The notes beneath the pieces are model-generated. The model made no database searches. It had not been told where the DNA came from and was given only the letters and a program-made list of their open reading frames with translations. 64,000 bases of DNA from contig OY730442.1 of assembly GCA_963422685.1 (NCBI GenBank), positions 2,695,847 to 2,759,846 on the forward strand, given 5' to 3'. Shown piece after piece: positions 21,629 to 44,377 of the stretch; within the stretch, counting starts at the first letter, position 1; every line of letters begins with the position of its first letter. The translations under genes and the position numbers were made by a program. The stretch comes from Arenicellales bacterium. Its GTDB lineage: Bacteria > Pseudomonadota > Gammaproteobacteria > Arenicellales > Poriferihabitantaceae.

Positions 21629-22112
21629 GGCAATCCGACTGATTTATGGCAAAAGTATTGATAAATGAATGGTAACCATGCTATCGGTTTTTTAATTTTA
21701 TTGTCAATTGAACTGAACGGAACATGGTTAAAAACCGGAGCTTTTTATGACTGATTCTGTGGTCGAAAATAACCAGGCACCACACCATAATAGCAGTCTC
21801 CATGCGGTTTTAACAGATTATTAATGGCGGTTGTGTCGGCAGCAAGCAGAACTGCCCGCTTTTAGTTTCCGTATTGGTTCTGAAAACCGCAGGCCGCCCT
21901 TATGCTCCCCATGGCAGGCCTGTTTGAATTTCATCGACCTGCTTTTCTGTGGGTATTCTGTCCGCTTGATCATACTGAAATCTCCAGATAAACAAGGGGT
22001 ATAAACCGGATATATACGTACTGCCAACACCGCCGGTTCCCATGCGACCGGGTTTGCACGAACCCGAACACCATGATTTAAGCTATAACTTTATGGTGTA
22101 TATTTTGATGCA

Positions 22113-22153
22113 AATATAGTCTATTGACTAGGGTATGTACTTTATGGTATATA
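22113..22153 (+). promoter_or_regulatory. Putative sigma70-type promoter with an overlapping palindromic box (box 1) upstream of the tagged ABC/hydantoinase operon
   Basis: AATATAGTCTATTGACTAGG (22113..22132) contains the palindrome ATAGtCTAT and -35 TTGACT (22124..22129). An 18-nt spacer follows, then TATATA (22148..22153). A near-identical copy lies at 44306..44346 on the minus strand. Confidence 0.5.
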
Positions 22154-22270
22154 AACTCCTTCCTGTGAGAGGGGTATCCGTTGCAGTTCATTTCAATTTG
22201 GCCGGACGGAGTACTTTTCATACCACATTAGGATTACTACTAATTGAACATCCTACGTAAGGAGAATATT

Positions 22271-23446: not shown

Positions 23447-23481
23447 GATTTAGATAGCGTGAATAAATCAGTGCTGGAGTA

Positions 23482-25314: not shown

Positions 25315-25331
25315 CAGGCATTGAATAACAA

Positions 25332-25961
25332 ATGGCATCGAAAACAAATCAAAAAGCACCGGCGGATGGTCAGAACTTCACCGACCGCGATACAGTGCAT
25401 TTTGAAACGCTCATGAATTCGTTTGATGTCAATACCGGTGTGCATGCTGAACGCCAGGATGAAAACAAGGAATCACCACGAATGGCTGTCCCGGACGAAT
25501 TTCCGTATACCGGGAGCGATATCCTTGAGTTTCAAAAGTTGATGGCTTCCAGTAACGCACCGGGGAATATGCGCAATACCGGTCCACTGTCTAGTGGTAA
25601 AGTTTCAAATAACACCAGTTATACCGAGGATGACAACCATTTTTTCGATGCGTTAGGGTCATTCGACTGGAGAGCGGGCCCAAACGCCGGGACAACGAGC
25701 TCCGCCAATCCGCCAAAACGGCAGGCGCCAACACCCGACACCGTCAAGTATTCCCGGCAAGACCTGGAAATATTTGCCAGGTTAATGCCCGGCGCGGCAG
25801 GCAGCAGGGAGTACGCCACCAGTAAGCCCGATGCGGCGCCGATACATATTGATAGAGACGTTGGCCATATCAGAATTGTTGATTATGACAAGCAGCGGCT
25901 GGCCGATTCGAAGCGCAAAAATCGTCCGCATATCGACATGAAAATTCATTATTTCGACTAA
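25332..25961 (+). CDS. Low-complexity repeat protein with the shared C-terminal tail (candidate scaffold)
   Basis: 209 aa with no recognisable enzymatic domain. It has four in-register [FY][TS]xxDxxxFxxL[MG] motifs and ends in the same tail as its neighbours. In-frame conservation of the tail argues that it is a real CDS despite a weak RBS. Confidence 0.7.
   Translation: MASKTNQKAPADGQNFTDRDTVHFETLMNSFDVNTGVHAERQDENKESPRMAVPDEFPYTGSDILEFQKLMASSNAPGNMRNTGPLSSGKVSNNTSYTEDDNHFFDALGSFDWRAGPNAGTTSSANPPKRQAPTPDTVKYSRQDLEIFARLMPGAAGSREYATSKPDAAPIHIDRDVGHIRIVDYDKQRLADSKRKNRPHIDMKIHYFD
25377..25787 (+). repeat. Four protein-level short-motif repeats inside ORF 25332..25961
   Basis: FTDRDTVHFETLM (25377..25415), YTGSDILEFQKLM (25506..25544), YTEDDNHFFDALG (25620..25658) and YSRQDLEIFARLM (25749..25787). 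Spacing is 43, 38 and 43 aa. Confidence 0.8.
25842..25958 (+). other. Shared C-terminal tail, copy 2 (on the repeat protein)
   Basis: IHIDRDVGHIRIVDYDKQRLADSKRKNRPHIDMKIHYFD*. Confidence 0.8.
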
Positions 25962-25966
25962 CTCCC

Positions 25967-28063: not shown

Positions 28064-28065
28064 CC

Positions 28066-30090: not shown

Positions 30091-30099
30091 TTTGCAGAC

Positions 30100-32364
30100 A
30101 TGAGTGCGACCAATAGCCATCAATCAGCCACGGCGATCAGTATGACGGGTTCCAAAGAATCCGGCTCTGGCGCCAATACGTATCTAATGGTGCCGATGTT
30201 TATCTTTTTCGCATTACTGATTTTTGCTGTGATTCGAGGCCCTAACCTGATCTCTGGTTCGGGTATTGGCAGCGCAGTGATCGTGGTGGCGCCATTAATA
30301 CTGGCGACCTACGCTTTGACCATCATTGTTATGGCGGGCCGAGCGGGAGTGGATCTTTCAATCGGTCCGCTCATTGGCTTTATCAATGTGGGCATGATTC
30401 AGTTGTTTGCGGTCGGATTCATGGAATCGCCCATCGCCTTTTTCCTGTATGCCATGGGTGTGGGTATCGCCTATCAGGTATTACAGGGGTTGATTATTAT
30501 TTTTGTACGGGTACAGCCGATAATCGTTTCGTTGAGCGGCTATCTTACCCTAGTGGGTCTGAACCTCATTATCATGCCCCGGCCCGGCGGTGTGGCGCCG
30601 GACTGGATGTTCCCCTGGGGCAGTGGCACCACGATTTTTTCAGCGATGCTGGTAATACTGGTACTGGCCACCATCGCCTGGTACATCATCGCCCGATCGG
30701 CATTTTTCGGCCACTTGCGCTTGATGGGTTCGGATGAACGCGCAGCCTATACCAGCGGTGTGCGCATTAATCTGGTGCGTCTGGGGGCGCATGCAATCGG
30801 CGGTGTCTATGCCGGACTTGCGGCGATTGCGTTTACTTCCCTGATCAGTTCCGGTGACCCGACCCAGGGCACGACCTATACCCTGATGGCCGTAACCGCG
30901 CTGGTGCTGGGTGGTGCCAACCTCGCTGGCGGGCGCGGCAGCGCGTTTGGCTCCTTGCTGGGCGCGTTGAATATCTATTTGATCACTTATGTCCTGTCAA
31001 CCTTCAACTTCGGCATGGTGCAGAGCTTTGTCACCGATATGGCCTATGGAGTAATGCTGGTTGTCTCATTATTGATCAGCGTGGTCGTGCCGCACATGCA
31101 AAAGCATATACGCAACCTGTCACCCTTTATGTTCTTTGTGATACTGCTAACCATTACGCTTGGTGTGATTATTCATACCGCTATGGACCAGGTCATGCAA
31201 CCACTGGCCGGGGCATCGTCTTCATCCTTTGTCATACTGGCCGATGGTGGTGTCGCACAGGCAAGCGGCGCAGCGGCCGGGGCGTCCTATTCTCCGGGAA
31301 CCTATATTCTTTTTATCATCATCGGCATCGTTGCTGTGGCCTACGCATTGCGCGTGTTATTCAAATATCCTAAAACACCGATGATCGCTTTTATGGCCGT
31401 CATGGCCATCGCCGCGCTCGGTTTGATTTTCAATCCCGACTCCCCGGTCGAACCCAATGCAGCGACGATGGAGCAGACGGCGCCCAGTGAACTGGATGCG
31501 TATACGCCGACGTTCTTCGCTATGGAAACCGTGGATGCAGTTACCAATACGCGGGATGCCGCCAATCTGGTTGTTCATACCACCTACGCCATGCTCACCA
31601 TGATCGGCGTAGTATTACTGGCTTCATTGATCATTCTCGTTATGCTGCCCCAGGTCAGGGTTCGCATCAAGCGCATGGCCCTGGTTCTGTTTGCCGCAGC
31701 AGTCGCGGTGATTGCGGTGGGGGCGTTATTCTTTGAGGACTTCGAAAAGGGTTATTTGGCCAGCAATCTTTCCGGGGAAATATATGCGGTGATTTTAGTG
31801 GGCGTCGGTTTGTTCACGCTGACGGCGCCTTTGGTGCACAACAGGCTCAGTAATATTTCCAGTATATTTATCGTGCTGATCGGTGTGCTGGCGATAATTT
31901 CCGTATACTTTTTTACTGAACCTGCCGGCAATATGGATGACATCAGCGCCTCCGGCTCAGCAAGCGCTTCGCCTGTATTCGCATCGGCCGCAGAGTCGGC
32001 GCACCCTCCTGTGGCCGAATATGCCGGCCCGGTGCGAGTAAATGTGGATGCTCCCGGGATGGCGGTGCACACACAATTAGCATATTGCGCATTCATTATC
32101 GTGCTGCTGCATATATTTCTGAGCATCGCCATGGGTGAAAACAGCTTTCGCAGCTTCTGGCGCATCTGGTATATCCCCGTTCTGGCCGCATTGGTGTGGG
32201 GTGGTTTGTTTTATGCTATTGGGGTTGCGCTGTGGCAGATTGTCGCGGTGGCCGCTGTGGCCATACTTTCCGCCCCCAACGTTATGCATATTATCAGCAC
32301 CTACAGAAGCAAACAGGGCCGCGATATTTCGCTCAGCCGGATGGGCCATCATGACAGAGCCTAG
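30100..32364 (+). CDS. CUT2-type ABC permease (BPD_transp_2) fused to an approximately 415-aa extra polytopic C-terminal region
   Basis: Residues 30-335 resemble RbsC/AraH-type permeases (...MAGRAGVDLSIGPLIGF..., ...LGGANLAGGRGSAFGSLLGAL...). Residues 340-754 (nt 31117..32364) add many hydrophobic segments and Ala/Ser/Gly-rich loops with no family I recognise. Confidence 0.8.
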   Translation: MSATNSHQSATAISMTGSKESGSGANTYLMVPMFIFFALLIFAVIRGPNLISGSGIGSAVIVVAPLILATYALTIIVMAGRAGVDLSIGPLIGFINVGMIQLFAVGFMESPIAFFLYAMGVGIAYQVLQGLIIIFVRVQPIIVSLSGYLTLVGLNLIIMPRPGGVAPDWMFPWGSGTTIFSAMLVILVLATIAWYIIARSAFFGHLRLMGSDERAAYTSGVRINLVRLGAHAIGGVYAGLAAIAFTSLISSGDPTQGTTYTLMAVTALVLGGANLAGGRGSAFGSLLGALNIYLITYVLSTFNFGMVQSFVTDMAYGVMLVVSLLISVVVPHMQKHIRNLSPFMFFVILLTITLGVIIHTAMDQVMQPLAGASSSSFVILADGGVAQASGAAAGASYSPGTYILFIIIGIVAVAYALRVLFKYPKTPMIAFMAVMAIAALGLIFNPDSPVEPNAATMEQTAPSELDAYTPTFFAMETVDAVTNTRDAANLVVHTTYAMLTMIGVVLLASLIILVMLPQVRVRIKRMALVLFAAAVAVIAVGALFFEDFEKGYLASNLSGEIYAVILVGVGLFTLTAPLVHNRLSNISSIFIVLIGVLAIISVYFFTEPAGNMDDISASGSASASPVFASAAESAHPPVAEYAGPVRVNVDAPGMAVHTQLAYCAFIIVLLHIFLSIAMGENSFRSFWRIWYIPVLAALVWGGLFYAIGVALWQIVAVAAVAILSAPNVMHIISTYRSKQGRDISLSRMGHHDRA

Positions 32365-32376
32365 GCAAAAAATTAA

Positions 32377-33786
32377 ATGAAAAGAGCGACCTATTCATTT
32401 TACAAGTGGCTTGGTTGCATAATCGCCGCAATGGTTGCCGGGGTCAGCGCGATTCTAGGCTGGATAGATGGGGCACCCATGCAGCACATCGTGTTTTACG
32501 CTATGGCCATCTTCGCATTAATTCTTTGGGGATGGCATCACTGCTCGGTACGCTGGATATATCGATCAGACGAAATTGCGGTCAGCACCACGCAACACCA
32601 GCCGGATGCGGCCACCGGCCAGGCCGATGAAGAATATCAGCCAAGCTTTGTGCGTACACTGATTGCCGGAAACAAGAGCGGCGCATGGGGTTTGTTGGCG
32701 CTGGTTATCGCATTCATTGCCAGCGCATTCGTCGTGGATGATTTTTTTCAATGGCGCAATATCATCTCGGTACTGGTATTTATTGCCTTTATTATTATGG
32801 CCTTTATTCTCAATAAACGAATCAAGACCAACAAAAGCGCATTCATCGGCATCGTTGTATTGATCGGGCTGTTCGTGATTGGATCGCTGGTAGTTGAAGG
32901 TTTTCTGTCCATCCTGAACATCAAATCCATGCTGGTGTTTGCCTCGTTTCTGGGTTTGGCCTGTATCGGACAAACCCTGGTTGCGTTGCTGGGCGGGCTG
33001 GATTTGTCCATACCTTTTGTCATCGGTTCATCCAATATTGGCCTGATGTATTTGCTCACCCTGGGCACGCCGCCATGGATCGCATTTATCGCAATCCTGC
33101 TGGTCGGCGCGGGGATTGGTTTTATAAACGGCATGTTGAGTTTTCGTTTGCAGGGCCAGGCGCTGATCCTGACCTTGGGAGTCGGTTTTGCGGTTTCCGG
33201 CGGCACCCAGATTCTCACCAGCATCGGCACTGCATTCGGCGGTAATGTATTCGGAGTGGTGCCCAAATGGTTGTCTAATATCGCTGCCATGAATGGCGTG
33301 TTTTTCGGATTAGAGTTTCCGCCAGTGGTTATTATCTGGGTTCTCGCCGCAATTATCCTGATTATCGGATTGCGCAATACCATCTGGGGAAGGCATCTGT
33401 ACGCCCTTGGCGGCAGTCGTATTTCAGCAAAGCGTCTGTCCATATCGGAACGCGGTTACTGGGTCGGTATGTACAGCATCAGCGGCTGTGTATCGGCGTT
33501 CACTGGTGCCCTGCTGCTGGGATGGAGCGGCGGCGGATTTATCGGCGTAGGCGATCAATATCTATTCATGACCCTGGCGGCCGTAGTGGTGGGCGGCACT
33601 TCCCTGCTGGGCGGCTGGGGCGGTTATGGCTTCACCGTGATTGGTGTACTGGTTTTGCAAGTGCTGACATCATTTCTGGTCGGTATAGGGCTGGATTATG
33701 AAAGTCAGCAATTCGTATTCGGGTTGCTCATTCTACCCATGGTGGCATTGTATGCGCGCTCGCCGCATATACGCACACAGATCTAG
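32377..33786 (+). CDS. CUT2-type ABC permease with an approximately 150-aa extra N-terminal membrane region
   Basis: The C-terminal 320 aa are BPD_transp_2-like (...LLGGLDLSIPFVIG..., ...VVGGTSLLGGWGGYGFTVIG...). The N-terminal 150 aa (nt 32377..32826) hold about 4 hydrophobic segments and an acidic loop not seen in the control permease 44378..45421. Confidence 0.8.
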   Translation: MKRATYSFYKWLGCIIAAMVAGVSAILGWIDGAPMQHIVFYAMAIFALILWGWHHCSVRWIYRSDEIAVSTTQHQPDAATGQADEEYQPSFVRTLIAGNKSGAWGLLALVIAFIASAFVVDDFFQWRNIISVLVFIAFIIMAFILNKRIKTNKSAFIGIVVLIGLFVIGSLVVEGFLSILNIKSMLVFASFLGLACIGQTLVALLGGLDLSIPFVIGSSNIGLMYLLTLGTPPWIAFIAILLVGAGIGFINGMLSFRLQGQALILTLGVGFAVSGGTQILTSIGTAFGGNVFGVVPKWLSNIAAMNGVFFGLEFPPVVIIWVLAAIILIIGLRNTIWGRHLYALGGSRISAKRLSISERGYWVGMYSISGCVSAFTGALLLGWSGGGFIGVGDQYLFMTLAAVVVGGTSLLGGWGGYGFTVIGVLVLQVLTSFLVGIGLDYESQQFVFGLLILPMVALYARSPHIRTQI

Positions 33787-33876
33787 CCCCAGTACAAATC
33801 AGAATTTTTTCATGGATGTGGGGAAGTGCGCAGAGCCGCAACAATACAATAATAGTGAAGCTCTTAAATATGTGGA

Positions 33877-34284
33877 TCAACGGTATTCTGCCAGTAAATC
33901 GGCGATGCGCTTTAAAAATATTGCATGTTCGCTCGCTTCTTCAGAAGAAAAGGATTCCTTGAGGATTTTCACGGGTTGTCCGCGTACTCCCGGGCAGATG
34001 CCGATACGGTAGTCTTCATGCCGGCGTTTGCATACGGTTATGTACTTGCCTGCCATCGGTTGACGACGGAATTTATCCAGTACCGTGATTAAATCCTTAC
34101 TGTGTTCAATCGGCGGTCTGCCGTTTCCCGGAGGCCCGGCCACAGGATTCGCTTTATGTTCAGCGATCAGCCGGTTACGGGTTGCCGCGTCAGTCAGCAG
34201 GGGCAATACATGGGTCCGGGTGATGTAGTCGTCGGTGCTGGTGCGCCCCTGGTCAGTTTGCACGCCGGTTGGTTTATTTAGCAT
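33877..34284 (-). CDS. N,N-dimethylformamidase small (alpha) subunit-like protein
   Basis: 135 aa. ...AEHKANPVAG...LDKFRRQPMAGKYITVCKRRHEDYRIGICPG...FSSEEASEHAIFLKRIADL follows the pattern I recall for the DMFase small subunit (...F.MQP.FG.YYI...W..YRI...F.TEEEAMHAVFLRRI.D). It lies downstream of the large-subunit homologue. Confidence 0.55.
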   Translation of the reverse strand: MLNKPTGVQTDQGRTSTDDYITRTHVLPLLTDAATRNRLIAEHKANPVAGPPGNGRPPIEHSKDLITVLDKFRRQPMAGKYITVCKRRHEDYRIGICPGVRGQPVKILKESFSSEEASEHAIFLKRIADLLAEYR

Positions 34285-34323
34285 TGTTTCGCCTCATTTG
34301 TTCAAATATCTGCGCGGATCGGT

Positions 34324-34692
34324 TCAAGTACATCGACACGGCGCTGATTCGCCGCGCACTTGTTTGATGCGGCGCGCTTCACGCTGCGCCAGTTCCGGTG
34401 TGGGAAAGCGCTTGTCTGCAAATAATATGATTGGCTTTATCCGGTCCGCATTGAGTTGGCCCACACACCATTCTTTATCCGGTTTGGTGCATACCACCAT
34501 GTAGGCGCCTGGAATGGGGCCATAGCGCCGATTGTTCAGTACAAACAGGCATTCAGCCAAATTGTTAAGTTTATCCACGTCCAGTTGACTCAATGCGGCC
34601 ATTTCCAGCTCATTGGGCGACACCAATGCCGCTCCCATCACTTCTTTACCCTGGGGTCGTTGCATCATCGGCGGTGATTGATTGTCTGGCAT
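34324..34692 (-). CDS. Divergent paralogue of the DMFase small-subunit-like protein
   Basis: 122 aa. GAYMVVCTKPDKEWCVGQLNADRIKPIILFADKRFPTPELAQREARRIKQV aligns with GKYITVCKRRHEDYRIGICPGVRGQPVKILKESFSSEEASEHAIFLKRI of the neighbour. Confidence 0.5.
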   Translation of the reverse strand: MPDNQSPPMMQRPQGKEVMGAALVSPNELEMAALSQLDVDKLNNLAECLFVLNNRRYGPIPGAYMVVCTKPDKEWCVGQLNADRIKPIILFADKRFPTPELAQREARRIKQVRGESAPCRCT

Positions 34693-34731
34693 ATTTACTA
34701 TCGCCTGATCATTATAATTGCGGCTGGGTGA

Positions 34732-37089
34732 CTAGGGCAGGGGGCCGTCTTTGAGAAACCCTTTGATGGTATTTTCGAGAATACGGGAGACGTTATTGTT
34801 GTAGTTGTTATGGGAAAGACTGCCGCACCAGGAAAGTGAACCGGGTGCGAACAGCGCACCGTCGTTCGGAGTTTTATAATAAATCATGTCAGCGCGAACC
34901 TGTGGGTTTTCAGTGCCGCCGCCATAATAACCGCGGACGGAGAAATGTATCTCCTCGTTCACTTGCAGCATGAGATTGGTGTGGCCTTCGGAACGCGCCA
35001 GCAAATAGGCATTGTGCGGCGTACCGAATTCCAGATCATAACGATCAAGTTCAAGGCCTGCGGCGCCGCCGCCGACCAGACCAAAGTCTCCGATTATTTC
35101 ATCTTCGCCGACACCTTCGAAAATCCAGGCGCATTCTGGTCTCTTGCTGTCCGCTTCACGGCGGTAATACGAGGACACATCAAAGCCGTAAGCGGTAAAC
35201 GTCAATCCGCATACCTTGCTTGGTATGCGCCCGCGTGCCCGCCACATTCCACCGAACTTTCCATCAAAGGCATTATTATATTCGCCTGGATTTGCCGTCC
35301 ATGCCCGAGTGCCTGCCTCACCTTTGCGCACTTCGATAATATTGTCATTGTCCGGGTGGTATTCGCTGACCCAGTAAAATCCGTCCGCACCCAGATATAT
35401 CCAGCGTCCGCCTCCGAGTTGATAGGACTCGTAGGCGGCATACATTTTTTCCGACGTGTATTCAGGATGGCTGCCGGTCAACACCGTTCTATACCGATTA
35501 AGCATTCCCACCCCTTCGCGATGCAGATCTTCATCGGTATGCACATCAAAATCGAAGCCTGTTTGTTCCAGCCAGTCGGTGAGATGCAAATCGCCGTTAA
35601 GCTGCCATAACGATGGCGACAGCCAGTGACGATACTTGGGTCGCATATTCAATATCGGGCGCAGGCGCGATGAGTAGCATACGCCACTGCCGTCTGAGTG
35701 CAGCGAGTAGGTAGACAAGCCGTATTCCCTATGTTCATTCAAATACAGGTCTGAAGGGGACAACACCGGGACTTTGCCCGCCAGCAATTGCGCGACCACC
35801 GAATTGGTGCCCAGGTTGTCGTTGGAATACGCCATGTAACTGTTGGTCGGTAAAATCAACGCCAGTCTGGATGTGGTCGTGCCTTGGGGCGGGCGAACAA
35901 CAAACGGAATAAAATCTTCGGTATCAGCAGAATCATCGCCGCCGATACGTAACCGGGCGGCATAAACCCCGCTTTTCAAACCTTCCGGCACGGTAAATTC
36001 AAAATCCATGTCCCAGCGAGCATCGTCGATATCGTCGTCATGGAAATGAATCGCGCCGTATTCATCGGGCCGGTGATGGTAGACAATCTCATCCCCGGTC
36101 CAGTTGAAACCGGTCATCGCTCTGGCCGGCAGGTTGATCGCATGACCATTGAGTATGTTCGGCGAGGTGTCGATAATATAAGTGGATGCGATGTTTGTAG
36201 TGATATTGGCGTGGAAATCCCACGCGCCGACAACATCATTCCGCAGCTCCGCCGCACAGCCCTCAAAGCCCCGTGCCAGCGCCTCAATCTCGGATTTGGA
36301 CAGCGCTCGACGGCAGAGTCTGGGGCGGTCGATTTTGCCGTTATAGACATGGGTTTGCTCCGGCAGCTCGACGGGCTGAGTCGCTTCCCTGTAATGTGCG
36401 CCGAAAATTGCTCTACCCGATCTTTCCTGCAAAGTTGAGGCGGCCATCAGCAAAGGCGCATCATTTATGCCGGGGAGCATACTGTTAGTTGCTTCCACCA
36501 CAGCAGTGGTTTCATCTCCGGGATGCAACAGCGACATACCCAGGCCGCCATTGGTAGCGGTGACCACGGGTTCCTGATACAACGTGACTCGACCACTTTG
36601 TTCATCAAAAGTCGCCGCTGCCAAATACCAGACTTTGCGCATCAGTTTCTTGTCGCTGGACAGGTTCATTACCAGTCCCCTACCGTCGCCAATCTCCAGG
36701 CTCAGGCAACCGCTATGGTCTATAAATAATCCATACCCGCATTTATTCTGCTCTGTCCATTTGGTGAGAATACCCTGCCTGCCCTTATCCGGTGTGGTTG
36801 GAAAAATGTAGGCTTGCAGGGTAAAACTCTGGACATTCAGGCGCTCGTCCTGAGGAATGATGATATAGGAACCGCCGTGAATTCTCTGGTTTCTGCCCGC
36901 ATAGGTTGTGTTGCAGGACGCGGTGATTTCCTCTTCCTTGTAGCCCGGTCCTTGCGGGTTGGTGTCGCCGTGGATTAAACGAACAATATGCGCATCATAG
37001 GATTCCTGCTCCTCGGAATTCACATAGAACTTGATGTTATCTCCAGGACAAACAGAATACTTGTCACTGTATCCGGTAATTCGTAACAT
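34732..37089 (-). CDS. N,N-dimethylformamidase large (beta) subunit family amidohydrolase
   Basis: Blocks match my recollection of DMFase: MLRITGY...VRLIHGDTNPQGPGYKEEE, DARWDMDFEFTVPEGLKSGVYAA, GLSTYSLHSDGSGVCYSSRLRPILNMRPKYR, VLTGSHPEY, GLVGGGAAGLELDRYDLEFGTP and NNVSRILENTIKGFLKD. The start was set at the ATG at 37089, because the ORF-track start overlaps the upstream SSS gene. Confidence 0.8.
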   Translation of the reverse strand: MLRITGYSDKYSVCPGDNIKFYVNSEEQESYDAHIVRLIHGDTNPQGPGYKEEEITASCNTTYAGRNQRIHGGSYIIIPQDERLNVQSFTLQAYIFPTTPDKGRQGILTKWTEQNKCGYGLFIDHSGCLSLEIGDGRGLVMNLSSDKKLMRKVWYLAAATFDEQSGRVTLYQEPVVTATNGGLGMSLLHPGDETTAVVEATNSMLPGINDAPLLMAASTLQERSGRAIFGAHYREATQPVELPEQTHVYNGKIDRPRLCRRALSKSEIEALARGFEGCAAELRNDVVGAWDFHANITTNIASTYIIDTSPNILNGHAINLPARAMTGFNWTGDEIVYHHRPDEYGAIHFHDDDIDDARWDMDFEFTVPEGLKSGVYAARLRIGGDDSADTEDFIPFVVRPPQGTTTSRLALILPTNSYMAYSNDNLGTNSVVAQLLAGKVPVLSPSDLYLNEHREYGLSTYSLHSDGSGVCYSSRLRPILNMRPKYRHWLSPSLWQLNGDLHLTDWLEQTGFDFDVHTDEDLHREGVGMLNRYRTVLTGSHPEYTSEKMYAAYESYQLGGGRWIYLGADGFYWVSEYHPDNDNIIEVRKGEAGTRAWTANPGEYNNAFDGKFGGMWRARGRIPSKVCGLTFTAYGFDVSSYYRREADSKRPECAWIFEGVGEDEIIGDFGLVGGGAAGLELDRYDLEFGTPHNAYLLARSEGHTNLMLQVNEEIHFSVRGYYGGGTENPQVRADMIYYKTPNDGALFAPGSLSWCGSLSHNNYNNNVSRILENTIKGFLKDGPLP

Positions 37090-37117
37090 GGTTTTTTCCC
37101 CGAATAATCGCCTTGAA

Positions 37118-39058
37118 TTAATATTTTGAGCCACTGGCAACTCTTTCGATTTCCCGTTCTGGAACAGTGGACATCTCCATTTTGCAGGCCAGATACCAAA
37201 TCATGCCTACGCCCAGCGCCCACCAGATAATCTGCCATGCCCAGATCGATGGCATACCCAGATTCCAGGCCGGATATCCTGCATCGGGCTCACCGAAAAG
37301 TACATTGCCAAGCACCGCACCGGGACCGATCGCAAAAAACATCCACACCAGTACGATGACTGCGGCGACGGATTTTGACCAGCGTCTGTGTCTCGTCAAT
37401 GAACCGTATTCTTTAAGAAAATCGTGCACCTGGCTGCGTCGCGGCCGGTGCACATCGTTGCGCCCCATAGCCGAAACGATGAGGCAGACCAGGATATTCA
37501 AAAACATACCCCATGCGGCAGAATGTATGGTCCAGGGCCAACGCCCCCAGGGCAGCGAATCCGCTGCGAGCTTCTGCCCCAGAGGTTCGGTCATGACCAC
37601 AGCAATCAGACCGGCAATCAAACCCAGGGTGGCAGCCTGTCGCGTGATCCAGGGAAACCATGTCACAGCAAGCAGCGACGGCCACAGTTGAAACCCAAAG
37701 GCAATGGCAAGACTGCCAAGCAGTATGGTAGCTTCCATTGAATAGGTGGCGATCAGCATGGCGGCCAGAAATACCAGCCCGGTACACAGCCGACCCACCC
37801 GCTTTTGTTTTTCATGATTCGCGTCAGGCTGGATATAGCGTTTATAAATATCCCGGGTCAAAATACTGCCAGTGGCGGCCATAAATGCACCGGCCGTTGC
37901 CTGTAACGCCGCAATGGCACAGACTGCAAACACCCCTATTAGCCAGGGCTGTTTGTCACCGATCAGTTTTATGTAGTGCACTGCCAGGGAGTTTCTTTCA
38001 TGGCCAGCCAGTACGGGTAGTATCTGCGCGGTGGCGATGTCGGCTTCATTGACTTGGGCATTGGCGCCCAGCAAATGTGCGCTAACACCCATCAAGGTGG
38101 AAAATACAAGCATGATGATCCCGGCGCAAAACGCGGCCCCCCAAACTTGATGGATGACGAATCCGCGTGGCGACTGGCTTGCAAAGCCCCACATGGAAAT
38201 AGCGGGCGAAGCCTGAATTCCCATTATCGACATCATAAAAGTCAGGCACATGATGGCTGTCCAGGGGCCGCCAGAAGGCGATTCGACACCGATTCCGGCG
38301 GTCCATTGAATTACCCCCGGGATGGCAAAGTATCCCGGGAAATTTCCACCGCCTGAACCATTCGTATTGCCCCACAAGCCCGGCAAGTTCTGTGCGATGC
38401 GTGCCAGACCTCTGTTCAGAGAGTCGAATCCCCCGGCCGTTTCCAGGGCAAATGTGCCGAGTACAACCACGCCAAAGGCAAACAATACGCACTGTACCAC
38501 AGCGATTTTCGCCACAGCCTGCATACCCCCAGTGGTACAGTACAGCAATACGAAGCCCGATAATACCCACATGGCAGCGTCACGGGATATGGTTTGATCG
38601 GTCAACTCACCGATCAAAAACCCGGATGCACCGAATAGCATGGCGGCAAATGGCACACCGAACAACAGCGCGATACCGACGGATACGATACGCAGCGCAT
38701 TGCCGCCAAAATAGTCTGCAAACATTTCGCCGCACGTCATATATCCAAATCGTCGCCCCAGCATCCACTGGCGTTTGAGGAGTACCACACCCGCTAACGC
38801 CACGGCTATGCCGTAAAAGGATGTATTAACGAATTGAAAGCCATCACGAAATACTAAACCGGGGTGCCCCATAAACGCCCAGCCTGCCAAGGTCACCGCA
38901 GTGATGGCAAGAGAAAATACCCAGGGCGAAAGCTGTCGGCCGGCAAGAAAAAAATCGCTGGCGGTGTGTGCCCGACGCAGCGCACGGATACCCCAGAAGA
39001 AACAATATGCCCAGTAAAGCAGCAAAAACAGCAGCAGCCAGATGGTGCTGTGGGTCAT
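37118..39058 (-). CDS. Sodium:solute symporter (SSS) family transporter
   Basis: 646 aa, about 13-14 hydrophobic segments, with an SSF-type N-terminus (LLLYWAYCFFWGIRALRRAHTASDFFLAGRQLSPW). It ends 28 nt before the amidase start. Confidence 0.8.
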   Translation of the reverse strand: MTHSTIWLLLFLLLYWAYCFFWGIRALRRAHTASDFFLAGRQLSPWVFSLAITAVTLAGWAFMGHPGLVFRDGFQFVNTSFYGIAVALAGVVLLKRQWMLGRRFGYMTCGEMFADYFGGNALRIVSVGIALLFGVPFAAMLFGASGFLIGELTDQTISRDAAMWVLSGFVLLYCTTGGMQAVAKIAVVQCVLFAFGVVVLGTFALETAGGFDSLNRGLARIAQNLPGLWGNTNGSGGGNFPGYFAIPGVIQWTAGIGVESPSGGPWTAIMCLTFMMSIMGIQASPAISMWGFASQSPRGFVIHQVWGAAFCAGIIMLVFSTLMGVSAHLLGANAQVNEADIATAQILPVLAGHERNSLAVHYIKLIGDKQPWLIGVFAVCAIAALQATAGAFMAATGSILTRDIYKRYIQPDANHEKQKRVGRLCTGLVFLAAMLIATYSMEATILLGSLAIAFGFQLWPSLLAVTWFPWITRQAATLGLIAGLIAVVMTEPLGQKLAADSLPWGRWPWTIHSAAWGMFLNILVCLIVSAMGRNDVHRPRRSQVHDFLKEYGSLTRHRRWSKSVAAVIVLVWMFFAIGPGAVLGNVLFGEPDAGYPAWNLGMPSIWAWQIIWWALGVGMIWYLACKMEMSTVPEREIERVASGSKY

Positions 39059-39121: not shown

Positions 39122-39883
39122 CTAGACAATTTGTTTTGGGGCCTGGGGGACCCGGGCCCAGAATTTCGGGTCATGCCCATAGAATATTCGCGCCCCGGCT
39201 TTTTCCAGCTTGCGCAGCAGCAACAGCGAATCAAGCATTTGGCTGCGATTATGAACCAGATGCGGCAGGTGCAGATTGGTCAGAGTTTCTTTTAAGTAAC
39301 AGGCATCAGCGGATAATATGATGTCACCAGAATCCAGGCGAACCTTCAGTGACTGGTGACCCGGAGTGTGGCCGAAGGTCGGTAGAGTGACTATGCGCCC
39401 ATCTCCGAACAAATCGTGTTCGCCGTTGACTTTCTGCACCAGATGACCATGATCATAATCCGCAGGAGCGTAGCCATTGGCTTTAATACATTCCGGGGTC
39501 TGCCCTGCTTCCCATTCGCGTTGTTGAATAATTATTTTGGCGTTTGGAATCAATTCATTACCGCCCGTATGATCAAAGTGCAGGTGTGAGTTAACCAGGT
39601 ATTCGATTTTATTCGCTTCGATATCCAGTTGTTGCAGACGTGACTTTATGTCCTCGCCCTGACGAAATTCAACACTAAAAAGATCCGCCAGAAATCCTAT
39701 CCTGCTGCGTGGATCATGCTGGCAGTGGGGATGCAGCCCGGTATCGAACAACACCTGACCGCGCGGGTGATCAACCAGATAAGCCGGCACCGGGAACCGA
39801 ATTCTGCCGGCTTTGCCGGCAAGCATCATGTTCAGCCCGGAGGTCAGCCAGCCGCAGGTCATGGCGTATACTTTTATGGACAC
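39122..39883 (-). CDS. Metallo-beta-lactamase fold hydrolase (AHL-lactonase-like subgroup)
   Basis: 253 aa with NSHLHFDHTGGN (HxHxDH), followed by the ...GHTPGH... and ...GHD... metal ligands. Confidence 0.75.
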   Translation of the reverse strand: MSIKVYAMTCGWLTSGLNMMLAGKAGRIRFPVPAYLVDHPRGQVLFDTGLHPHCQHDPRSRIGFLADLFSVEFRQGEDIKSRLQQLDIEANKIEYLVNSHLHFDHTGGNELIPNAKIIIQQREWEAGQTPECIKANGYAPADYDHGHLVQKVNGEHDLFGDGRIVTLPTFGHTPGHQSLKVRLDSGDIILSADACYLKETLTNLHLPHLVHNRSQMLDSLLLLRKLEKAGARIFYGHDPKFWARVPQAPKQIV

Positions 39884-39938: not shown

Positions 39939-40793
39939 TTATCCGTCGGTGCGTTCACGAATGATACGCAGCGCCTCTTTAAGATAGACCCGAAACACAT
40001 CGTAGTTTTCGCTCATCGGAAAATGGCCAATATCGTCCATCTCGATATAGACTCCGCCCCGTATCCGGCGTGCGGTATTTTCGGTGGCCTCAGGGGGAGT
40101 GAGGTAATCGTAGGTGCCGGTCATCATGATTACCGGGCATTTTCGACCCTGGATGTTTTGCAGTTCATCGCGCAGGTCGTGGTCAACGGAATAAAAGTAC
40201 AGATCTCCTTTGAACGCTTCTGACCCTTGGGTGTAATAGTGCCAGGTCAGCCAGCGATCCATTTCCGGCGATTGCGGTGCCATTAAATCCCACACACCGC
40301 TGCCACAAACCTGGGCCGCATTGGCGTGCGGATGGCGCCACCAATCCAGATAAAATCCTGGCGCATAGTCAGCCGCTTCTACCGGGATCACTGCCTTGAA
40401 TCGATCTGGCCGCCGCAGTGCAAGTTGTAATGCGACATTTCCGCCAAATGATGAGCCCATAAAAATCGGCTCCTTCAGCTCCAGCGCGTCACATAATCTG
40501 AGTATGAAATTACAATAGTGATCGGCGGTAAGTTTATATTCCTGTTTCCACCACTCGGTGTTATGGGGCGGGTCTGATTTTCCATGTCTGGGCAAGTCGT
40601 AGGCAATGACGTTGTAATGTTTTGTGATTTCTGCGTCTTCAAGCAGACCACGCCACTGGTGATTATGGCATCCGGCAGTGTGTTGACAGATGAGCGGCTG
40701 TCCCCGGCCATTATGTAGATAGAACACTTTGTACTCCTGACCATCAACATCAATTGTTACGTAGCGGCCGGTAACGGGGGAATGTTTTACCAT
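39939..40793 (-). CDS. Alpha/beta-fold hydrolase
   Basis: 284 aa with the nucleophile elbow MGSSFGG and a C-terminal ...DDIGHFP... histidine. Confidence 0.75.
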   Translation of the reverse strand: MVKHSPVTGRYVTIDVDGQEYKVFYLHNGRGQPLICQHTAGCHNHQWRGLLEDAEITKHYNVIAYDLPRHGKSDPPHNTEWWKQEYKLTADHYCNFILRLCDALELKEPIFMGSSFGGNVALQLALRRPDRFKAVIPVEAADYAPGFYLDWWRHPHANAAQVCGSGVWDLMAPQSPEMDRWLTWHYYTQGSEAFKGDLYFYSVDHDLRDELQNIQGRKCPVIMMTGTYDYLTPPEATENTARRIRGGVYIEMDDIGHFPMSENYDVFRVYLKEALRIIRERTDG

Positions 40794-40845: not shown

Positions 40846-41235
40846 TCACACGGGAACGCCGCTTTTGCGCAATAGTTCAAATTGCACGGTAAAATTACGG
40901 AGATTCTGCATAAGTACCAGATGATTACCCTCAATCTTCAGGTCCTTGCGAAAACTTGCCGACCAGATACCGTGATACATTGGTTTCGGCACAGGTTGGG
41001 AAAACTCCCGCCAGGTTGCCGCTGAGGCCCGCAGTGCGAAATCATACGCATCCAGCGGCCCGGGGTCCGTGTTAATATTTTTTATCTTGCCGTCGTGCAT
41101 TTCTATAATGAACCTGCAATCGGTCATGTCAAACATAAACGAGCAGGTGTAGTACTTCGCCATTGCGCCGATGGTTTCATCGCTATTTGTCAGGTTTGCG
41201 TACTTATCTGCCCAGGTTTTAGGGTCTTGCTTCAT
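40846..41235 (-). CDS. SCP2 sterol-carrier-like small protein (tentative)
   Basis: 129 aa. The pattern ...FMFDMTDCRFIIEMHDGKI...ALRASAATWREF...LKIEGNHLVLMQNL resembles SCP2 domains. Assigned from pattern only. Confidence 0.4.
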   Translation of the reverse strand: MKQDPKTWADKYANLTNSDETIGAMAKYYTCSFMFDMTDCRFIIEMHDGKIKNINTDPGPLDAYDFALRASAATWREFSQPVPKPMYHGIWSASFRKDLKIEGNHLVLMQNLRNFTVQFELLRKSGVPV

Positions 41236-41353: not shown

Positions 41354-43399
41354 TTAACTATTCTGCGGCTTCCCGGCGGACTTTGTCGTATTCGACCGGG
41401 TTGATGTACTCTGATCGGTGATTTCCTTGTCATAGCCACCCAGAATATTGCTGATGTTACTGATCTCTCCTGGTGACATGCCGATTTCCTGCAACAGATT
41501 ATCAACAAATGGCATTTGTGCACGGTAACGCAGCGCCGAGTTCACAACGTTATCTGCCAGACTGCTGCCCGGCGTATCATCGCCTTTTCTTGGTCTATCC
41601 CCGCTGCCGCCAGCGCCCTGGGGATGTCCATCGCTGAATCCGGGCATCCCGTTGACTTCCAGAATCTTGATAGCGTCAATGTTCTGCATTGGTTTCACCG
41701 CTTCCCGGATGATGGATTCAAGATTGCTCGCCAGTTGCATACGCAATGCACTGCGGCGACTGGCGTCGCTGCGCATATTCTCTGCCTCATTAAGCTGTCG
41801 CTTGCCAGCCGCCTCTACTTCATAACGCAGCCTGGTCGCCAACGAAGCAAACTTTTCGGCCTGCTCCCGGTCTGCGGACGCTGTTTTTTCGGCTTTGGCC
41901 AGCGTAGTCAGTTGAATCGCTTCGCGCTCCACCTGCTGGGCGGCATGAATCAGCTCGACGGCTTTTTTACGTTCTGCAATTTCCAGTTCACGCACTGAAG
42001 CAACTTTCTCCTCAGCGTCTGCGACTTGAGCGTGCGCCTGTTGTTCTTCGGTATTTGCCTGCAACACTTCCAGCGATTTTTTGGTAACCGCCAGATTGCG
42101 ATCCTGCTCTTCTATCTGCAATATCTTGAGTTTTTCGATTTCCTGGGCTTTGGTCTTTCGCTCATTTTCGATTCGAATCGCGTCAAGATTCCGCTGTTGC
42201 ACTATTTGCGCTTTTTTCACTTCTTCCCGGGCGCGGATCTGTGCTTGTTCGCCTTCCTGAAAACGCACTGCTTCCTGGGTCACCACATCCGCTTTCTGCT
42301 TTGCTCTGCGCACCGCAATTTCTTCCTGCTGCTGTAAGTGTACAAATTCATTTTCTTTTGCGATTTCGAGCGATCGGATGTCCGCTTCCAGGTTCTTCTG
42401 TTGAATCTGGATTTCGGTTTCTTTTTCGATCTGGTTGCGTAATCTGCGCCGTTCTTCGATTTCCAGGGTTAGTTTGTGATCGCGCAATGAACGTTCAACA
42501 TCAACAGCCTGTTCATAGCAGATGCGTGCTTTTTCAATTTCTTCATCGGCTTTTATCTGCGCTTCTTCGGCCTTGCGCTCCTGGTTGGCGCGCTCCACAG
42601 ACATTTCGGTGCGTTCTTTGGCGCGCTGTTTTTCTATATCTCTTTGTTGGGCAAGACGAGAAAATTCACTTTCTTTTTCAATGCCCAGCGCTCTTTTTTC
42701 TGCTTCCAGGTTTTTGTTGCGAATCTGAATCCGGGTGTCCTGTTCAATGTCGTTGCGTTTTTTCTTGCGCAGTTCAATTTGCTCGGTCAATTGGGTGAGA
42801 CCTTCTGCATCAAACGCATTGGATGGGTTGAATACTTCCAGGGCGGCCTGATCCAGGCCGGTCAGAGAAACCGCTTCAAGCTCAAGCCCGGTTTGACCTA
42901 ATGAATCTTCTACCAGCGCTTTGACCGACTTGACATAGTCGCCCCGATGTTCCTGCATTTCGTCCATGCTCATCTGCGCCGCAACAATCCCCAGGGCATC
43001 GACAAACCGGCCTTCCACCAATTCACGCAGGCTTTCCGGTTCCAGCGTACGTTTTCCAAGCGATCGCGCCGCTGTGGATACTGCTTCCCGGGTCGGCGTA
43101 ACGCGCACATAAAACTCCGCCACCAGTTCAACGCGCATTCGGTTTCTGGTGATCAGGGATTTGTCGCCGCCGCGCCGGACTTCAATGCGTAATGTGCGCA
43201 TGCCCACGGTGGTTATATTATGGATAATCGGCAATACGAAGGCGCCACCGCTAATTACAACCTTTTCACCACCGAGGCCACTGCGCACAAACGAGACTTC
43301 TTTGGAAGAGCGACGGTATAACCAGTGTAATAGATAAACTACGATAGCAATCGCAAGCCCAATCAGGATGATTACCGCAATAATGTCTGCACCGGTCAT
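41354..43399 (-). CDS. Flotillin / SPFH (band 7) family membrane-scaffold protein, YqiK-like
   Basis: N-terminal TM (IIAVIILIGLAIAIVVYLL), an SPFH domain (...VVISGGAFVLPIIHNITTVGMRTLRIEV...), and a long E/K/Q/R coiled coil with a tandem ~100-aa duplication. AGGAG RBS. Confidence 0.85.
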   Translation of the reverse strand: MTGADIIAVIILIGLAIAIVVYLLHWLYRRSSKEVSFVRSGLGGEKVVISGGAFVLPIIHNITTVGMRTLRIEVRRGGDKSLITRNRMRVELVAEFYVRVTPTREAVSTAARSLGKRTLEPESLRELVEGRFVDALGIVAAQMSMDEMQEHRGDYVKSVKALVEDSLGQTGLELEAVSLTGLDQAALEVFNPSNAFDAEGLTQLTEQIELRKKKRNDIEQDTRIQIRNKNLEAEKRALGIEKESEFSRLAQQRDIEKQRAKERTEMSVERANQERKAEEAQIKADEEIEKARICYEQAVDVERSLRDHKLTLEIEERRRLRNQIEKETEIQIQQKNLEADIRSLEIAKENEFVHLQQQEEIAVRRAKQKADVVTQEAVRFQEGEQAQIRAREEVKKAQIVQQRNLDAIRIENERKTKAQEIEKLKILQIEEQDRNLAVTKKSLEVLQANTEEQQAHAQVADAEEKVASVRELEIAERKKAVELIHAAQQVEREAIQLTTLAKAEKTASADREQAEKFASLATRLRYEVEAAGKRQLNEAENMRSDASRRSALRMQLASNLESIIREAVKPMQNIDAIKILEVNGMPGFSDGHPQGAGGSGDRPRKGDDTPGSSLADNVVNSALRYRAQMPFVDNLLQEIGMSPGEISNISNILGGYDKEITDQSTSTRSNTTKSAGKPQNS

Positions 43400-43460: not shown

Positions 43461-44159
43461 TCATGAATTCACTCGCGAATCGTTTATTGCAGCCCGATAG
43501 ATCACGAAACCGAAGATAATTTTGTTCAAAAAATCCGCGAGGTTGTAGATGATATTCAAACTATTGGTATCCACACCACCGCCCAGGTGTTCGATAAAAT
43601 AGCCGAGCGGATAAATTGCCCAGCCGATGGTGACAATCAGCCGTAAGCCGTTAAACGCCAGATGGGTGGCGTCGTTTCCGCTGTGCGCATTAACCCGGCC
43701 AGCTTCGCCCATATACAACTCACCCAGAATATACAGCCAGCCAACCAGCCCAATCAGAAAACCAAGGGTGGCGCTCATATAACCCGCCGCGCCGAGAAAT
43801 TCGCCAATGACCATCACCAGTGAACCTATCAGCAGTCGCCAGAATAACGCTGTGGAAGCCCTGGTTACCGCAGTGAGCACCACATAAAACAGAACCACCT
43901 GCATTGGATGGGTAAGCACCCAGTCAATGTATCGCAAAATTATCGGGGCGGAACCTGTGTCCATCCACATCTCTTTGGTGTAGTGATAATGGATCGCGGA
44001 GACCAGCATGACTACACCCAGCAGTGTCATTGTTGTATGCCATCTACCGGTCACCTTATTTCTTTCCAACAGGAAAAAAATGGTCGCGCCGATCAGGGCT
44101 ATGGACAACAGCCAGAATGAACCGCCGACAACATCAGTGGGTAACAGCGTCTCGTTCAT
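43461..44159 (-). CDS. Microbial (type I) rhodopsin, proteorhodopsin-like, with Leu at the proton-donor position
   Basis: 232 aa, colinear with proteorhodopsin as I recall it: SFWLL..., IHYHY (His75 equivalent), RYIDWVLTHPMQVVLFY (Asp97 and Thr101 equivalents present, Gln at tuning site 105, Leu at 108), and IYNLADFLNKIIFG (Asp227 and retinal Lys231 equivalents). Confidence 0.88.
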   Translation of the reverse strand: MNETLLPTDVVGGSFWLLSIALIGATIFFLLERNKVTGRWHTTMTLLGVVMLVSAIHYHYTKEMWMDTGSAPIILRYIDWVLTHPMQVVLFYVVLTAVTRASTALFWRLLIGSLVMVIGEFLGAAGYMSATLGFLIGLVGWLYILGELYMGEAGRVNAHSGNDATHLAFNGLRLIVTIGWAIYPLGYFIEHLGGGVDTNSLNIIYNLADFLNKIIFGFVIYRAAINDSRVNS

Positions 44160-44305: not shown

Positions 44306-44346
44306 TATATATCATTAGTTATAGATCCTGGTCAATAGTCTATATT
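44306..44346 (-). promoter_or_regulatory. Putative sigma70-type promoter with a palindromic box (box 2) upstream of the rhodopsin-led block
   Basis: The minus strand reads AATATAGACTATTGACCAGG-15 nt-TATATA. This is identical at 18 of 20 positions to box 1, with the same spacing, and sits about 145 nt upstream of the rhodopsin ATG. Confidence 0.5.
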
Positions 44347-44377
44347 CTTAATACAAGCATATCCTAAAGTTATAATT

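Follow-up and report, generated by a model that had tools for sequence, protein, structure and literature searches.

Three adjacent genes on the minus strand of the window, by which we mean the whole 64,000-nucleotide stretch of DNA analysed here from an Arenicellales bacterium (contig OY730442.1), probably encode a cytoplasmic mononuclear-iron amidohydrolase of the N,N-dimethylformamidase (DMFase) family. One gene specifies a catalytic large subunit, and the other two, here called smA and smB, specify small proteins. All three belong to a nine-gene operon headed by a gene for a flotillin-associated rhodopsin (FAR), and correspond to the ‘dimethylformamidase’ of the FAR clusters in SAR11, HIMB59 and Pseudothioglobus. 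We infer that the three products form one complex that binds iron and hydrolyses an amide.

The catalytic subunit and its active site

The three genes, and the large-subunit codons discussed below, are as follows.

34732..37089, minus strand: large (catalytic) subunit, putative DMFase-family Fe amidohydrolase, 785 aa, with Pfam and PDB matches
34324..34692, minus strand: smA, third component, a truncated and divergent small-subunit paralogue, 122 aa
33877..34284, minus strand: smB, orthologue of the DMFase small subunit DmfA1 and last gene of the operon, 135 aa
35827-35829, minus strand: putative Fe ligand Y421 (Y399 in Paracoccus), by alignment
35707-35709, minus strand: putative Fe ligand Y461 (Y440 in Paracoccus), by alignment
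35461-35463, minus strand: putative Fe ligand E543 (E521 in Paracoccus), by alignment
35467-35469, minus strand: putative catalytic His H541 (H519 in Paracoccus), by alignment
35383-35385, minus strand: D569, codon GAC, at the Asn547 position, by alignment
35050-35052, minus strand: putative base Glu E680 (E657 in Paracoccus), by alignment
34942-34944, minus strand: putative gate F716 (F693 in Paracoccus), by alignment

The large-subunit reading frame opens with an ATG at 37089, and its 785 aa are the length of nearly all orthologues. A phmmer search of the PDB matched residues 3-785 to the Paracoccus DMFase large subunit, 6LVB_A (E 8e-192), and Pfam recognises both DMFA2_C (PF20254, 4e-95) and Laminin_G_3 (PF13385, LamG/pentraxin type, 5e-11). 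A multiple alignment puts the identity of the window protein to the DmfA2 proteins of P. aminophilus and Methylobacterium DM1 at 44-45%. An earlier reading of the DNA, made without database searches (the sequence-only reading), had assigned this product to the DMFase large-subunit family from a set of sequence blocks, and every one of those blocks is found in the alignment with 6LVB_A: VRLIHGD.NP.GPGYKEE; D..RW..DFEFTVPEGLKS; GLSTY..H.DG.GV.Y.S..RPI.N.RPK.R; VLTGSHPEY; GLVGGGA.G.ELDRYDL..GTP; and a final block that is NNVSR in the window protein and NNVSK in 6LVB.

In the Paracoccus enzyme, Fe(III) is held by Y399, Y440 and E521 (Arya et al., PMC7686228), while H519, N547 and E657 are each needed for activity, the N547A variant being inactive, and F693 of the adjacent subunit narrows the pocket (PMC7686228). 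The sequence-only reading had pointed to this Tyr/Tyr/Glu iron site as the place to look, and the site is conserved as Y421, Y461 and E543. Across an alignment of 89 sequences, comprising the FAR-type clade, its paralogues, two true DMFases and the N-acetyl-(R)-beta-phenylalanine acylase of PDB entry 8HUY, the positions of Y399, Y440, E521, H519 and E657 are invariant (89/89), and F693 is kept in all but two (87/89).

Judged from these conserved residues and by analogy with Paracoccus, two tyrosinates and a glutamate would bind Fe(III), which would in turn activate water, with Glu680 acting as the base and His541 assisting, such that a small amide may be cleaved to an acid and an amine. The sodium:solute symporter (SSS) encoded next to the large subunit may deliver the substrate, albeit by a weak link.

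Position 547 is occupied by Asp in 58 of the 89 sequences, including the window protein, and by Asn in the other 31. Asn547 has been proposed to be the oxyanion- and water-holding residue in Paracoccus (PMC7686228). The two states are exchanged even where orthologues each share 86-88% identity with the window protein, as in L004 (Asp) and L005 (Asn); therefore the Asn-to-Asp change is tolerated. For the same reason, the substitution was rejected as proof of lost activity. Perhaps an amide and a carboxyl group can each serve at this position, for example by holding a buried water.

There are two further differences from DMFase. Firstly, Tyr656, which lies beside the catalytic Glu, is replaced by Leu or Val in the FAR-type clade, with Leu in the window protein. 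Secondly, a 13-aa insert in domain II (window residues 233-245, YREATQPVELPEQ) is found in all large subunits of the three-gene type, and is absent from DmfA2. The insert is a candidate contact for smA, though its correlation with the third gene is phylogenetically one event.

The small genes and the three-gene unit

The Paracoccus DMFase large subunit is inactive by itself. By sequence and predicted fold, smB is a true DMFase small subunit: it matches 6LVB_B, the small subunit of that enzyme, at E 3e-7, shares 38% identity with the DmfA1 proteins of Paracoccus and Methylobacterium across 95 aa, and has an AlphaFold2 model (pLDDT 89) that Foldseek matches to 6LVV_B and 6LVB_B (TM 0.71-0.76, probability 1.00). 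No match to smA was found in the PDB, Pfam or NCBIfam. However, aligning a profile of 33 smA orthologues with one of 32 smB/DmfA1 sequences, using hhalign, gave a probability of 96% (E 4.5e-9) over the C-terminal 71 columns. The AlphaFold2 model of smA (pLDDT 84) has the same module of helix, three-strand sheet and helix as the C-terminal half of smB, without the two long N-terminal helices of the latter. Hence the small-subunit-like genes that the sequence-only reading placed after the large subunit are borne out, smB by sequence and fold, and smA by profile comparison.

Two features of smA are its own. The motif WCVGQLxADR is invariant in smA, and absent from smB and DmfA1. The C-terminus (34324-34350, minus strand) carries a conserved Cys-containing tail, GE(S/A)xPCRCT, which ends as PCRNH in Pseudothioglobus and PRRCT in SAR11.

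The sequence-only reading had not recognised that these two genes and the large one make up an invariant three-gene unit. This emerges from 80 loci with close relatives of the large subunit (75-88% identity), sampled as one genome per species. The full triad is present in 74, as L-smA-smB in 20 and as smB-L-smA in 54 (L being the large subunit); in the remaining six, one or both small genes were not found, and most of these are cut contigs. Every locus with enough flanking DNA (74) thus has both small genes beside the large one. By contrast, the canonical loci of P. aminophilus pAMI2 and Methylobacterium DM1 (L081 and L083) are arranged LuxR(dmfR)-dmfA1-dmfA2, and lack smA. The two-gene composition of dmfA1 followed by dmfA2 does not apply to the window, where a third gene is present and the order is L-smA-smB. 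Since all 74 adequate loci hold three genes, and the canonical dmfA1A2 operons lack the third, the enzyme is a three-gene variant. The same small-large-small' layout recurs in a paralogous clade further away (57-60% identity), which includes the copy on plasmid pcAMD1 of Aminobacter niigataensis. No description of a three-subunit DMFase was found in the literature since 2021 that mentions the enzyme.

In the phylogeny, the FAR-linked large subunits form one supported clade (SH-aLRT 95), within which alphaproteobacterial and gammaproteobacterial branches are interleaved, and the true DMFases sit on a very long branch. The sequence-only reading considered DMFase rare, which holds for the characterised degraders of dimethylformamide (DMF), but not for the family: there are 1269 clusters at 50% identity with E<=1e-30, the whole FAR-type clade falling in one of them; members occur in 4.5% of complete genomes (bioRxiv 2021.03.18.435917); and SAR11 and other plankton carry the FAR-type clade in abundance, with Pelagibacter sp. 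Uisw_094, Pseudothioglobus sp. Uisw_041 and Njordibacter sp. Uisw_039 among its cultured carriers. Of 201 families of the class, sampled evenly, only five have any member of the large-subunit family. Large subunits identical or nearly identical to those of SAR11 or gammaproteobacteria were also seen in bins labelled as a Methanobacteriota archaeon (L040), Dehalococcoidia (L018) and Flavobacteriales (L020), that of L040 matching the SAR11 sequence of L038 exactly; mis-binning of these contigs is the most likely explanation, rather than cross-domain transfer.

The FAR cluster, the symporter and the convergent operon

The other genes of the operon are listed below.

43461..44159, minus strand: FAR, first gene of the operon, Pfam Bac_rhodopsin 2e-34
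41354..43399, minus strand: flotillin (SPFH/Band 7 and Flot), Pfam Flot 2e-30 and Band_7 1e-11
40846..41235, minus strand: 129-aa protein, orthologue of SAR11-cds04 by tblastn, 75-90% identity across classes
39939..40793, minus strand: alpha/beta hydrolase, Pfam Abhydrolase_1 3e-22, weak NCBIfam match to 3-oxoadipate enol-lactonase
39122..39883, minus strand: metallo-beta-lactamase (MBL)-fold hydrolase, lactonase-like, Pfam Lactamase_B 2e-20
37118..39058, minus strand: SSS (SSS/SSF, TC 2.A.21), 646 aa, Pfam SSF

Their order is FAR, flotillin, SCP2-like, alpha/beta hydrolase, lactonase-like MBL, SSS, large subunit, smA and smB. The rhodopsin-fold gene is directly followed by flotillin on the same strand, as is characteristic of a FAR cluster, with 61 nt between the two here. 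The sequence-only reading saw a context without an obvious link to DMF. Judged by orthology, however, this is the FAR gene cluster already published for SAR11, HIMB59 and Pseudothioglobus, in which a dimethylformamidase had been listed (PMC10308929 Table S2). The text and Table S2 of that study give N,N-dimethylformamidase and the sodium/solute symporter as common to all three groups (Haro-Moreno et al. 2023, PMC10308929), and all of the tabulated companions are present in the window: SCP2-like protein, alpha/beta hydrolase, DMFase, SSS and lactonase-like MBL, as well as the hybrid kinase and LuxR that are tabulated for Pseudothioglobus. Orthology to the loci of SAR11, HIMB59 and Pseudothioglobus is borne out by tblastn. 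However, the same table labels the orthologue of smB (SAR11-cds06) as an ‘inner-membrane translocator’ and that of smA (cds08) as ‘hypothetical’, and hence the composition of the enzyme went unrecognised.

FAR or flotillin is seen at about 55 of the 80 loci, and FAR is syntenic with flotillin in about 55 related loci. Across the Alpha- and Gammaproteobacteria, identity is 75-88% for the large subunit, 82-96% for the alpha/beta hydrolase and 75-90% for the 129-aa protein, against 59-91% for FAR and 46-83% for flotillin in the same loci. The alpha/beta hydrolase is the most conserved gene of the cluster, its 82-96% holding for comparisons of the window's gammaproteobacterium with SAR11, HIMB59 and Hyphomicrobiales; it could not be placed in any specific family, the weak 3-oxoadipate enol-lactonase match being the best. 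The 129-aa protein matched nothing in Pfam or NCBIfam, its SCP2 sterol-binding superfamily label being the InterPro label of SAR11-cds04 (PMC10308929 Table S2). The best NCBIfam model for the MBL-fold hydrolase is the AttM lactonase (1e-50), at 173 bits, which is under the 390-bit cut-off. In Pseudothioglobus, the triad directly follows flotillin. Conversely, 12 full triads lie at loci whose flanks hold neither FAR nor flotillin, including those of groundwater gammaproteobacterial metagenome-assembled genomes (MAGs) and a Hydrogenophaga MAG, and some of these loci have two triads.

The SSF domain of the symporter (PF00474, 9e-28) spans residues 36-483. No substrate subfamily (PutP, PanF, ActP, MctP or others) could be assigned to it, NCBIfam placing it at superfamily level only, with equivalog scores far under the cut-offs (e.g. 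73 vs 515 bits for PutP). The large-subunit ATG does lie 28 nt past the symporter stop, as the sequence-only reading stated, but its proposal that enzyme and symporter are coupled is not supported, their adjacency being lineage-specific. An SSS lies within 10 kb of the triad at 55 of the 80 loci, and none was found at the other 25, which include the 12 full triads without FAR or flotillin in their flanks, five FAR clusters of the Pseudothioglobus type, and some short contigs. Where it is present, it may be upstream of the triad, downstream, or separated from it, depending on the lineage. Homologues of the SSS were found in three other genomes within a sample of 401 of the phylum, one in a FAR cluster without a DMFase (L090) and two in which the SSS stands alone (45-53% identity). 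Hence the triads without an SSS, the SSS without a triad and the shifting position together indicate that it is the FAR core, and not the amidase, with which the symporter travels; the symporter is a member of the cluster, and no dedicated partner of the enzyme.

The L090 locus (G474:C33:149001-169000) comes from a genome of the same phylum with 63% GC, and combines a substrate-binding protein (SBP), an ATPase and two permeases with FAR (40% identical), flotillin, an SSS (32%), an iron-type alcohol dehydrogenase (Fe-ADH), an aldehyde dehydrogenase (ALDH) and an acyl-CoA synthetase, and has no DMFase-like gene. An Fe-ADH is beside the SSS in SAR11 also. This arrangement suggests that interchangeable enzyme modules surround a core of FAR, flotillin and transporter.

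A second operon converges on that of the triad, the two meeting at 33787-33876, and both are headed by the same sequence box.

44306..44374, minus strand: promoter/operator box heading the minus-strand operon, ~147 nt ahead of the FAR start
22084..22153, plus strand: second copy of the box, at the head of the plus-strand operon, by sequence match
22244-33786, plus strand: convergent operon of SBP, ATPase, scaffold protein, caprolactamase-type HyuA/HyuB and two permeases

The box of ~70 nt holds TATAACTTTA, the palindrome ATAGACTAT (ATAGNCTAT overlapping TTGAC), a conserved spacer and TATATA, with the TTGAC being -35-like. Its 38-nt core occurs twice in the window, at 22116-22153 (plus strand) and 44306-44343 (minus strand), against an expectation of zero from 100 shuffles; the similarity of the two copies extends beyond the core and includes a shared 10-mer. 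The core is also found upstream of FAR in three relatives (L002, L004 and L005). The minus-strand operon would probably be driven from its copy at 44306-44374; its genes are separated by gaps of 28-118 nt, and internal promoter-like and terminator-like sites show no excess over shuffled sequence.

Since the same box heads both operons, they are likely co-regulated, for which the neighbouring hybrid kinase and LuxR-type response regulator (48428-49120) are plausible agents. The convergent hydantoinase operon and the shared promoter box were both described by the sequence-only reading, and both stand. It went on to suggest that the two operons belong to one amide or lactam catabolic programme, and with the box at both heads and their co-occurrence in relatives, co-regulation can reasonably be inferred.

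Within the convergent operon, HyuA/HyuB (25967-30090, plus strand) score above the NCBIfam equivalog cut-offs for caprolactamase CapA/CapB (1208 and 1103 bits vs 1000), such that a second enzyme named after a synthetic chemical belongs to the same putative regulon as the DMFase-like enzyme. The SBP (22244-23446, plus strand) has weak NCBIfam matches to TorT, which binds trimethylamine N-oxide (5e-10), and to sugar-binding proteins such as XylF (1.5e-11), all far under the cut-offs. The docking tail of the convergent-operon proteins, IRIVDFD...MKIxYF, is absent from the DMFase trio, the SSS, the MBL-fold hydrolase and the alpha/beta hydrolase.

The source genome, 98% complete, is assembled as one contig of 2.90 Mb. 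Among the sequencing runs containing the stretch are Hi-C libraries of host-organism projects, and the loci nearest to it belong to Arenicellales and Candidatus Poriferihabitaceae MAGs, which suggests that the bacterium lives in symbiosis with a marine invertebrate, for instance a sponge.

Substrate, alternatives and known systems

The sequence-only reading supposed that the environmental homologues act on natural N-substituted formamides or amides. Our best guess at the substrate is a small N-substituted formamide or short-chain amide, which is favoured because the Phe gate is kept, a small subunit is present, and the enzyme is closer to DMFase than to the 8HUY acylase. Among the triads outside FAR clusters, L060 and L066 were uninformative as to substrate (with a GMC oxidoreductase, a TonB receptor, a glutathione S-transferase and others as neighbours), and the only hint came from L074. 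At this locus of a Hydrogenophaga intermedia MAG (L074:3691-9438), two triads, one outside any FAR cluster (75% identical) and the other paralogous, lie on either side of two glutamine synthetase (GS)-like genes, a class-I glutamine amidotransferase (GATase) and a P450, the GS-like and GATase genes being a few kb from the triad on the opposite strand, with the P450 nearby. These neighbours resemble a gamma-glutamylation route for an amine, and would fit the release of an amine that can be assimilated. Peptides of a DmfA from Alpha- and Gammaproteobacteria, which may or may not be of the FAR-type clade, have been reported in Pacific metaproteomes (PMC9477243).

Several points weigh against a three-component iron amidohydrolase acting on such a substrate. 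Firstly, no gene of the cluster points to a formamide, the companions being lactamase-, lactonase- and esterase-like. Secondly, DMF and N-methylformamide are neutral, and should require no symporter. Thirdly, the window protein has Asp at position 547. Fourthly, searching the PDB with the smA model using Foldseek gave no significant match (best E 0.16); as the same search with smB, the positive control, recovered 6LVB_B, smA shares only the C-terminal module seen by hhalign. Fifthly, a physical part for smA in the complex is argued from synteny and homology. Finally, a transcript search found the stretch in DNA-type runs only, and in none of the listed RNA runs, and hence co-transcription is argued from gene spacing.

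One unlikely alternative is that the enzyme is an acylase for a larger charged N-acyl compound, such as an N-formyl or N-acetyl amino acid, a beta-amino acid or a lactam-derived amide, imported by the adjacent SSS as part of a dedicated uptake-hydrolysis pair. SSS transporters typically move polar or charged solutes, and here the gap of 28 nt lies inside one operon, with an SSS within 10 kb at 55 of the 80 loci. The family also includes the N-acetyl-(R)-beta-phenylalanine acylase, which has the same catalytic residues (8HUY, E 3e-129), and Tyr656 beside the catalytic Glu is Leu or Val in the FAR-type clade. However, a dedicated pair is at odds with the 25 loci without an SSS, even allowing for those that are short contigs, given that 12 are full triads free of FAR and flotillin and five are Pseudothioglobus-type FAR clusters. 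It also fits poorly with the shifting position of the SSS between lineages, with the solitary SSS homologues of 45-53% identity, and with the FAR cluster of L090, which lacks a DMFase and in which the SSS accompanies an Fe-ADH, ALDH and acyl-CoA synthetase, much as the SAR11 Fe-ADH adjoins the SSS. Furthermore, the 8HUY acylase has Thr in place of the Phe gate, and its entry contains large-subunit chains only, whereas the window enzyme keeps both the gate and the small subunit.

It is rather improbable that the enzyme is a genuine N,N-dimethylformamidase (EC 3.5.1.56), for which DMF or N-methylformamide would be the physiological substrate, the resulting methylamines and formate feeding C1 and nitrogen metabolism. 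The oxidation of trimethylamine and dimethylamine gives DMF and N-methylformamide, and SAR11 oxidises both methylated amines and formate. DMFase is also the closest characterised relative, and the GS-like and GATase neighbours in Hydrogenophaga fit the assimilation of a primary amine. In addition, a true small subunit is present, which few large-subunit homologues have (41 genomes vs 924; bioRxiv 2021.03.18.435917), the Phe693 constriction that is reported to exclude larger amides is kept, and the Paracoccus enzyme kinetically prefers N-methylformamide (PMC7686228). Against this stand the 44% identity to DmfA2 and the very long branch, the third subunit and the insert that DMFases do not have, the Asp at position 547, a cluster without methylamine-catabolic genes, and partners that hydrolyse lactams, lactones and esters. 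The Km of the Paracoccus enzyme, given without units as 0.03-0.85 in what Table 1 of PMC7686228 shows, would also be too high for oligotrophic seawater, assuming a range of mM to M.

That the triad is catalytically dead, and a structural or regulatory part of a flotillin/FAR membrane platform, is very improbable: the replacement of Asn547 by Asp, the tight link to a retinal-free rhodopsin and flotillin (which the triad directly follows in Pseudothioglobus) and the unusually high sequence conservation might be read in this way, but the Fe ligands, His519 and Glu657 are invariant in 89/89 sequences, Asn and Asp alternate among near-identical orthologues and so are tolerated rather than inactivating, close relatives (75-77% identity) have neither FAR nor flotillin in their flanks, and the triad lacks the docking tail of the convergent-operon proteins.

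The DMFase-family amidohydrolase of three genes remains the preferred reading. The annotation of a dimethylformamidase and a symporter in the FAR cluster was already known (PMC10308929); the literature searched did not describe which subunits make up the enzyme, the correction to the annotation, the Asn/Asp polymorphism or the lack of coupling to the symporter. That the enzyme comprises three genes, rather than one, tells which should be co-expressed, one of them carrying a mistaken translocator label in the sole publication on the cluster; the view of the symporter as the enzyme's private importer is corrected; and the free exchange of Asn and Asp at position 547 amounts to nature's own experiment on the oxyanion-hole role proposed for that residue. 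To the function of the FAR cluster, published in 2023, this enzyme offers the most tractable way in.

DMFase is known from textbooks solely as a degrader of a man-made solvent. Yet a complete and strongly constrained relative is found at the core of a gene cluster whose carriers rank among the sea's most abundant bacteria, and it is therefore very likely that the family has a natural substrate of ecological weight. A bolder extension, which we consider unlikely, is that the triad belongs to a class of iron amidohydrolases that has so far gone unrecognised, built from three kinds of subunit, in which smA may dock on the domain II insert. Such an enzyme would be the main catalytic output of marine FAR clusters, harvesting a natural small N-substituted formamide or amide in SAR11, Pseudothioglobus and sponge-associated gammaproteobacteria; examples might be N-methylformamide or DMF from methylamine oxidation, or a formyl-amine freed when partner enzymes open a lactam. 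If true, this would give the first biochemical handle on the purpose of the flotillin-rhodopsin platform.

Among known systems, the window enzyme resembles the DmfA1/DmfA2 enzymes of Paracoccus sp. DMF, P. aminophilus and Methylobacterium sp. DM1 (6LVB, 6LVC, 6LVV; EC 3.5.1.56) in its three-domain large subunit, which aligns end to end, in the same ligands of two Tyr and one Glu with His519, Glu657 and Phe693, and in a homologous small subunit with the same predicted fold. It differs in having only 44-45% identity, a third gene (smA), the 13-aa domain II insert, Asp for Asn547 and Leu for Tyr656. Its genes are chromosomal, in a marine FAR operon, with the small genes after the large one, whereas the canonical loci are LuxR-dmfA1-dmfA2 on methylotroph plasmids, with dmfA1 before dmfA2.

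Orthologous genes are present in the SAR11 FAR cluster (PMC10308929, SAR11-cds06 to cds09), with identities of 64-76% for smB, 79-82% for the large subunit, 58-66% for smA and 43-46% for the SSS. FAR, flotillin, the SCP2-like protein and the alpha/beta hydrolase are shared with the clusters of SAR11, HIMB59 and Pseudothioglobus, and the LuxR-type regulator and hybrid kinase are as in Pseudothioglobus. However, the window has L-smA-smB with the SSS upstream where SAR11 has smB-L-smA-SSS, and caprolactamase-type HyuA/HyuB in place of the SAR11 PxpA and biotin-carboxylase genes, and its host is a gammaproteobacterium with a 2.9-Mb genome of 52% GC, related to Arenicellales/Poriferihabitaceae MAGs.

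Two further systems can be compared. The locus on plasmid pcAMD1 of Aminobacter niigataensis MD1 comprises LuxR, 157-aa, 804-aa and 130-aa genes in a small-large-small' arrangement, and shares the domain II insert, with identities of 57-58% for the large subunit, 40% for the upstream small protein and 30% (to smA) for the downstream one; yet it lies on the plasmid of a soil methylotroph with a dmfR-like LuxR, has no FAR, flotillin or SSS, keeps Asn547, and belongs to a separate paralogous clade. The N-acetyl-(R)-beta-phenylalanine acylase (8HUY, 8I59, 8I5A) belongs to the same large-subunit fold family, with the Tyr, Tyr, Glu, His, Asn and Glu positions conserved, but its chains A and B are of one protein, without a small subunit, it has Thr at the Phe693 position and acts on a bulky N-acetyl amino acid, and its identity to the window protein is ~42% over domain III.

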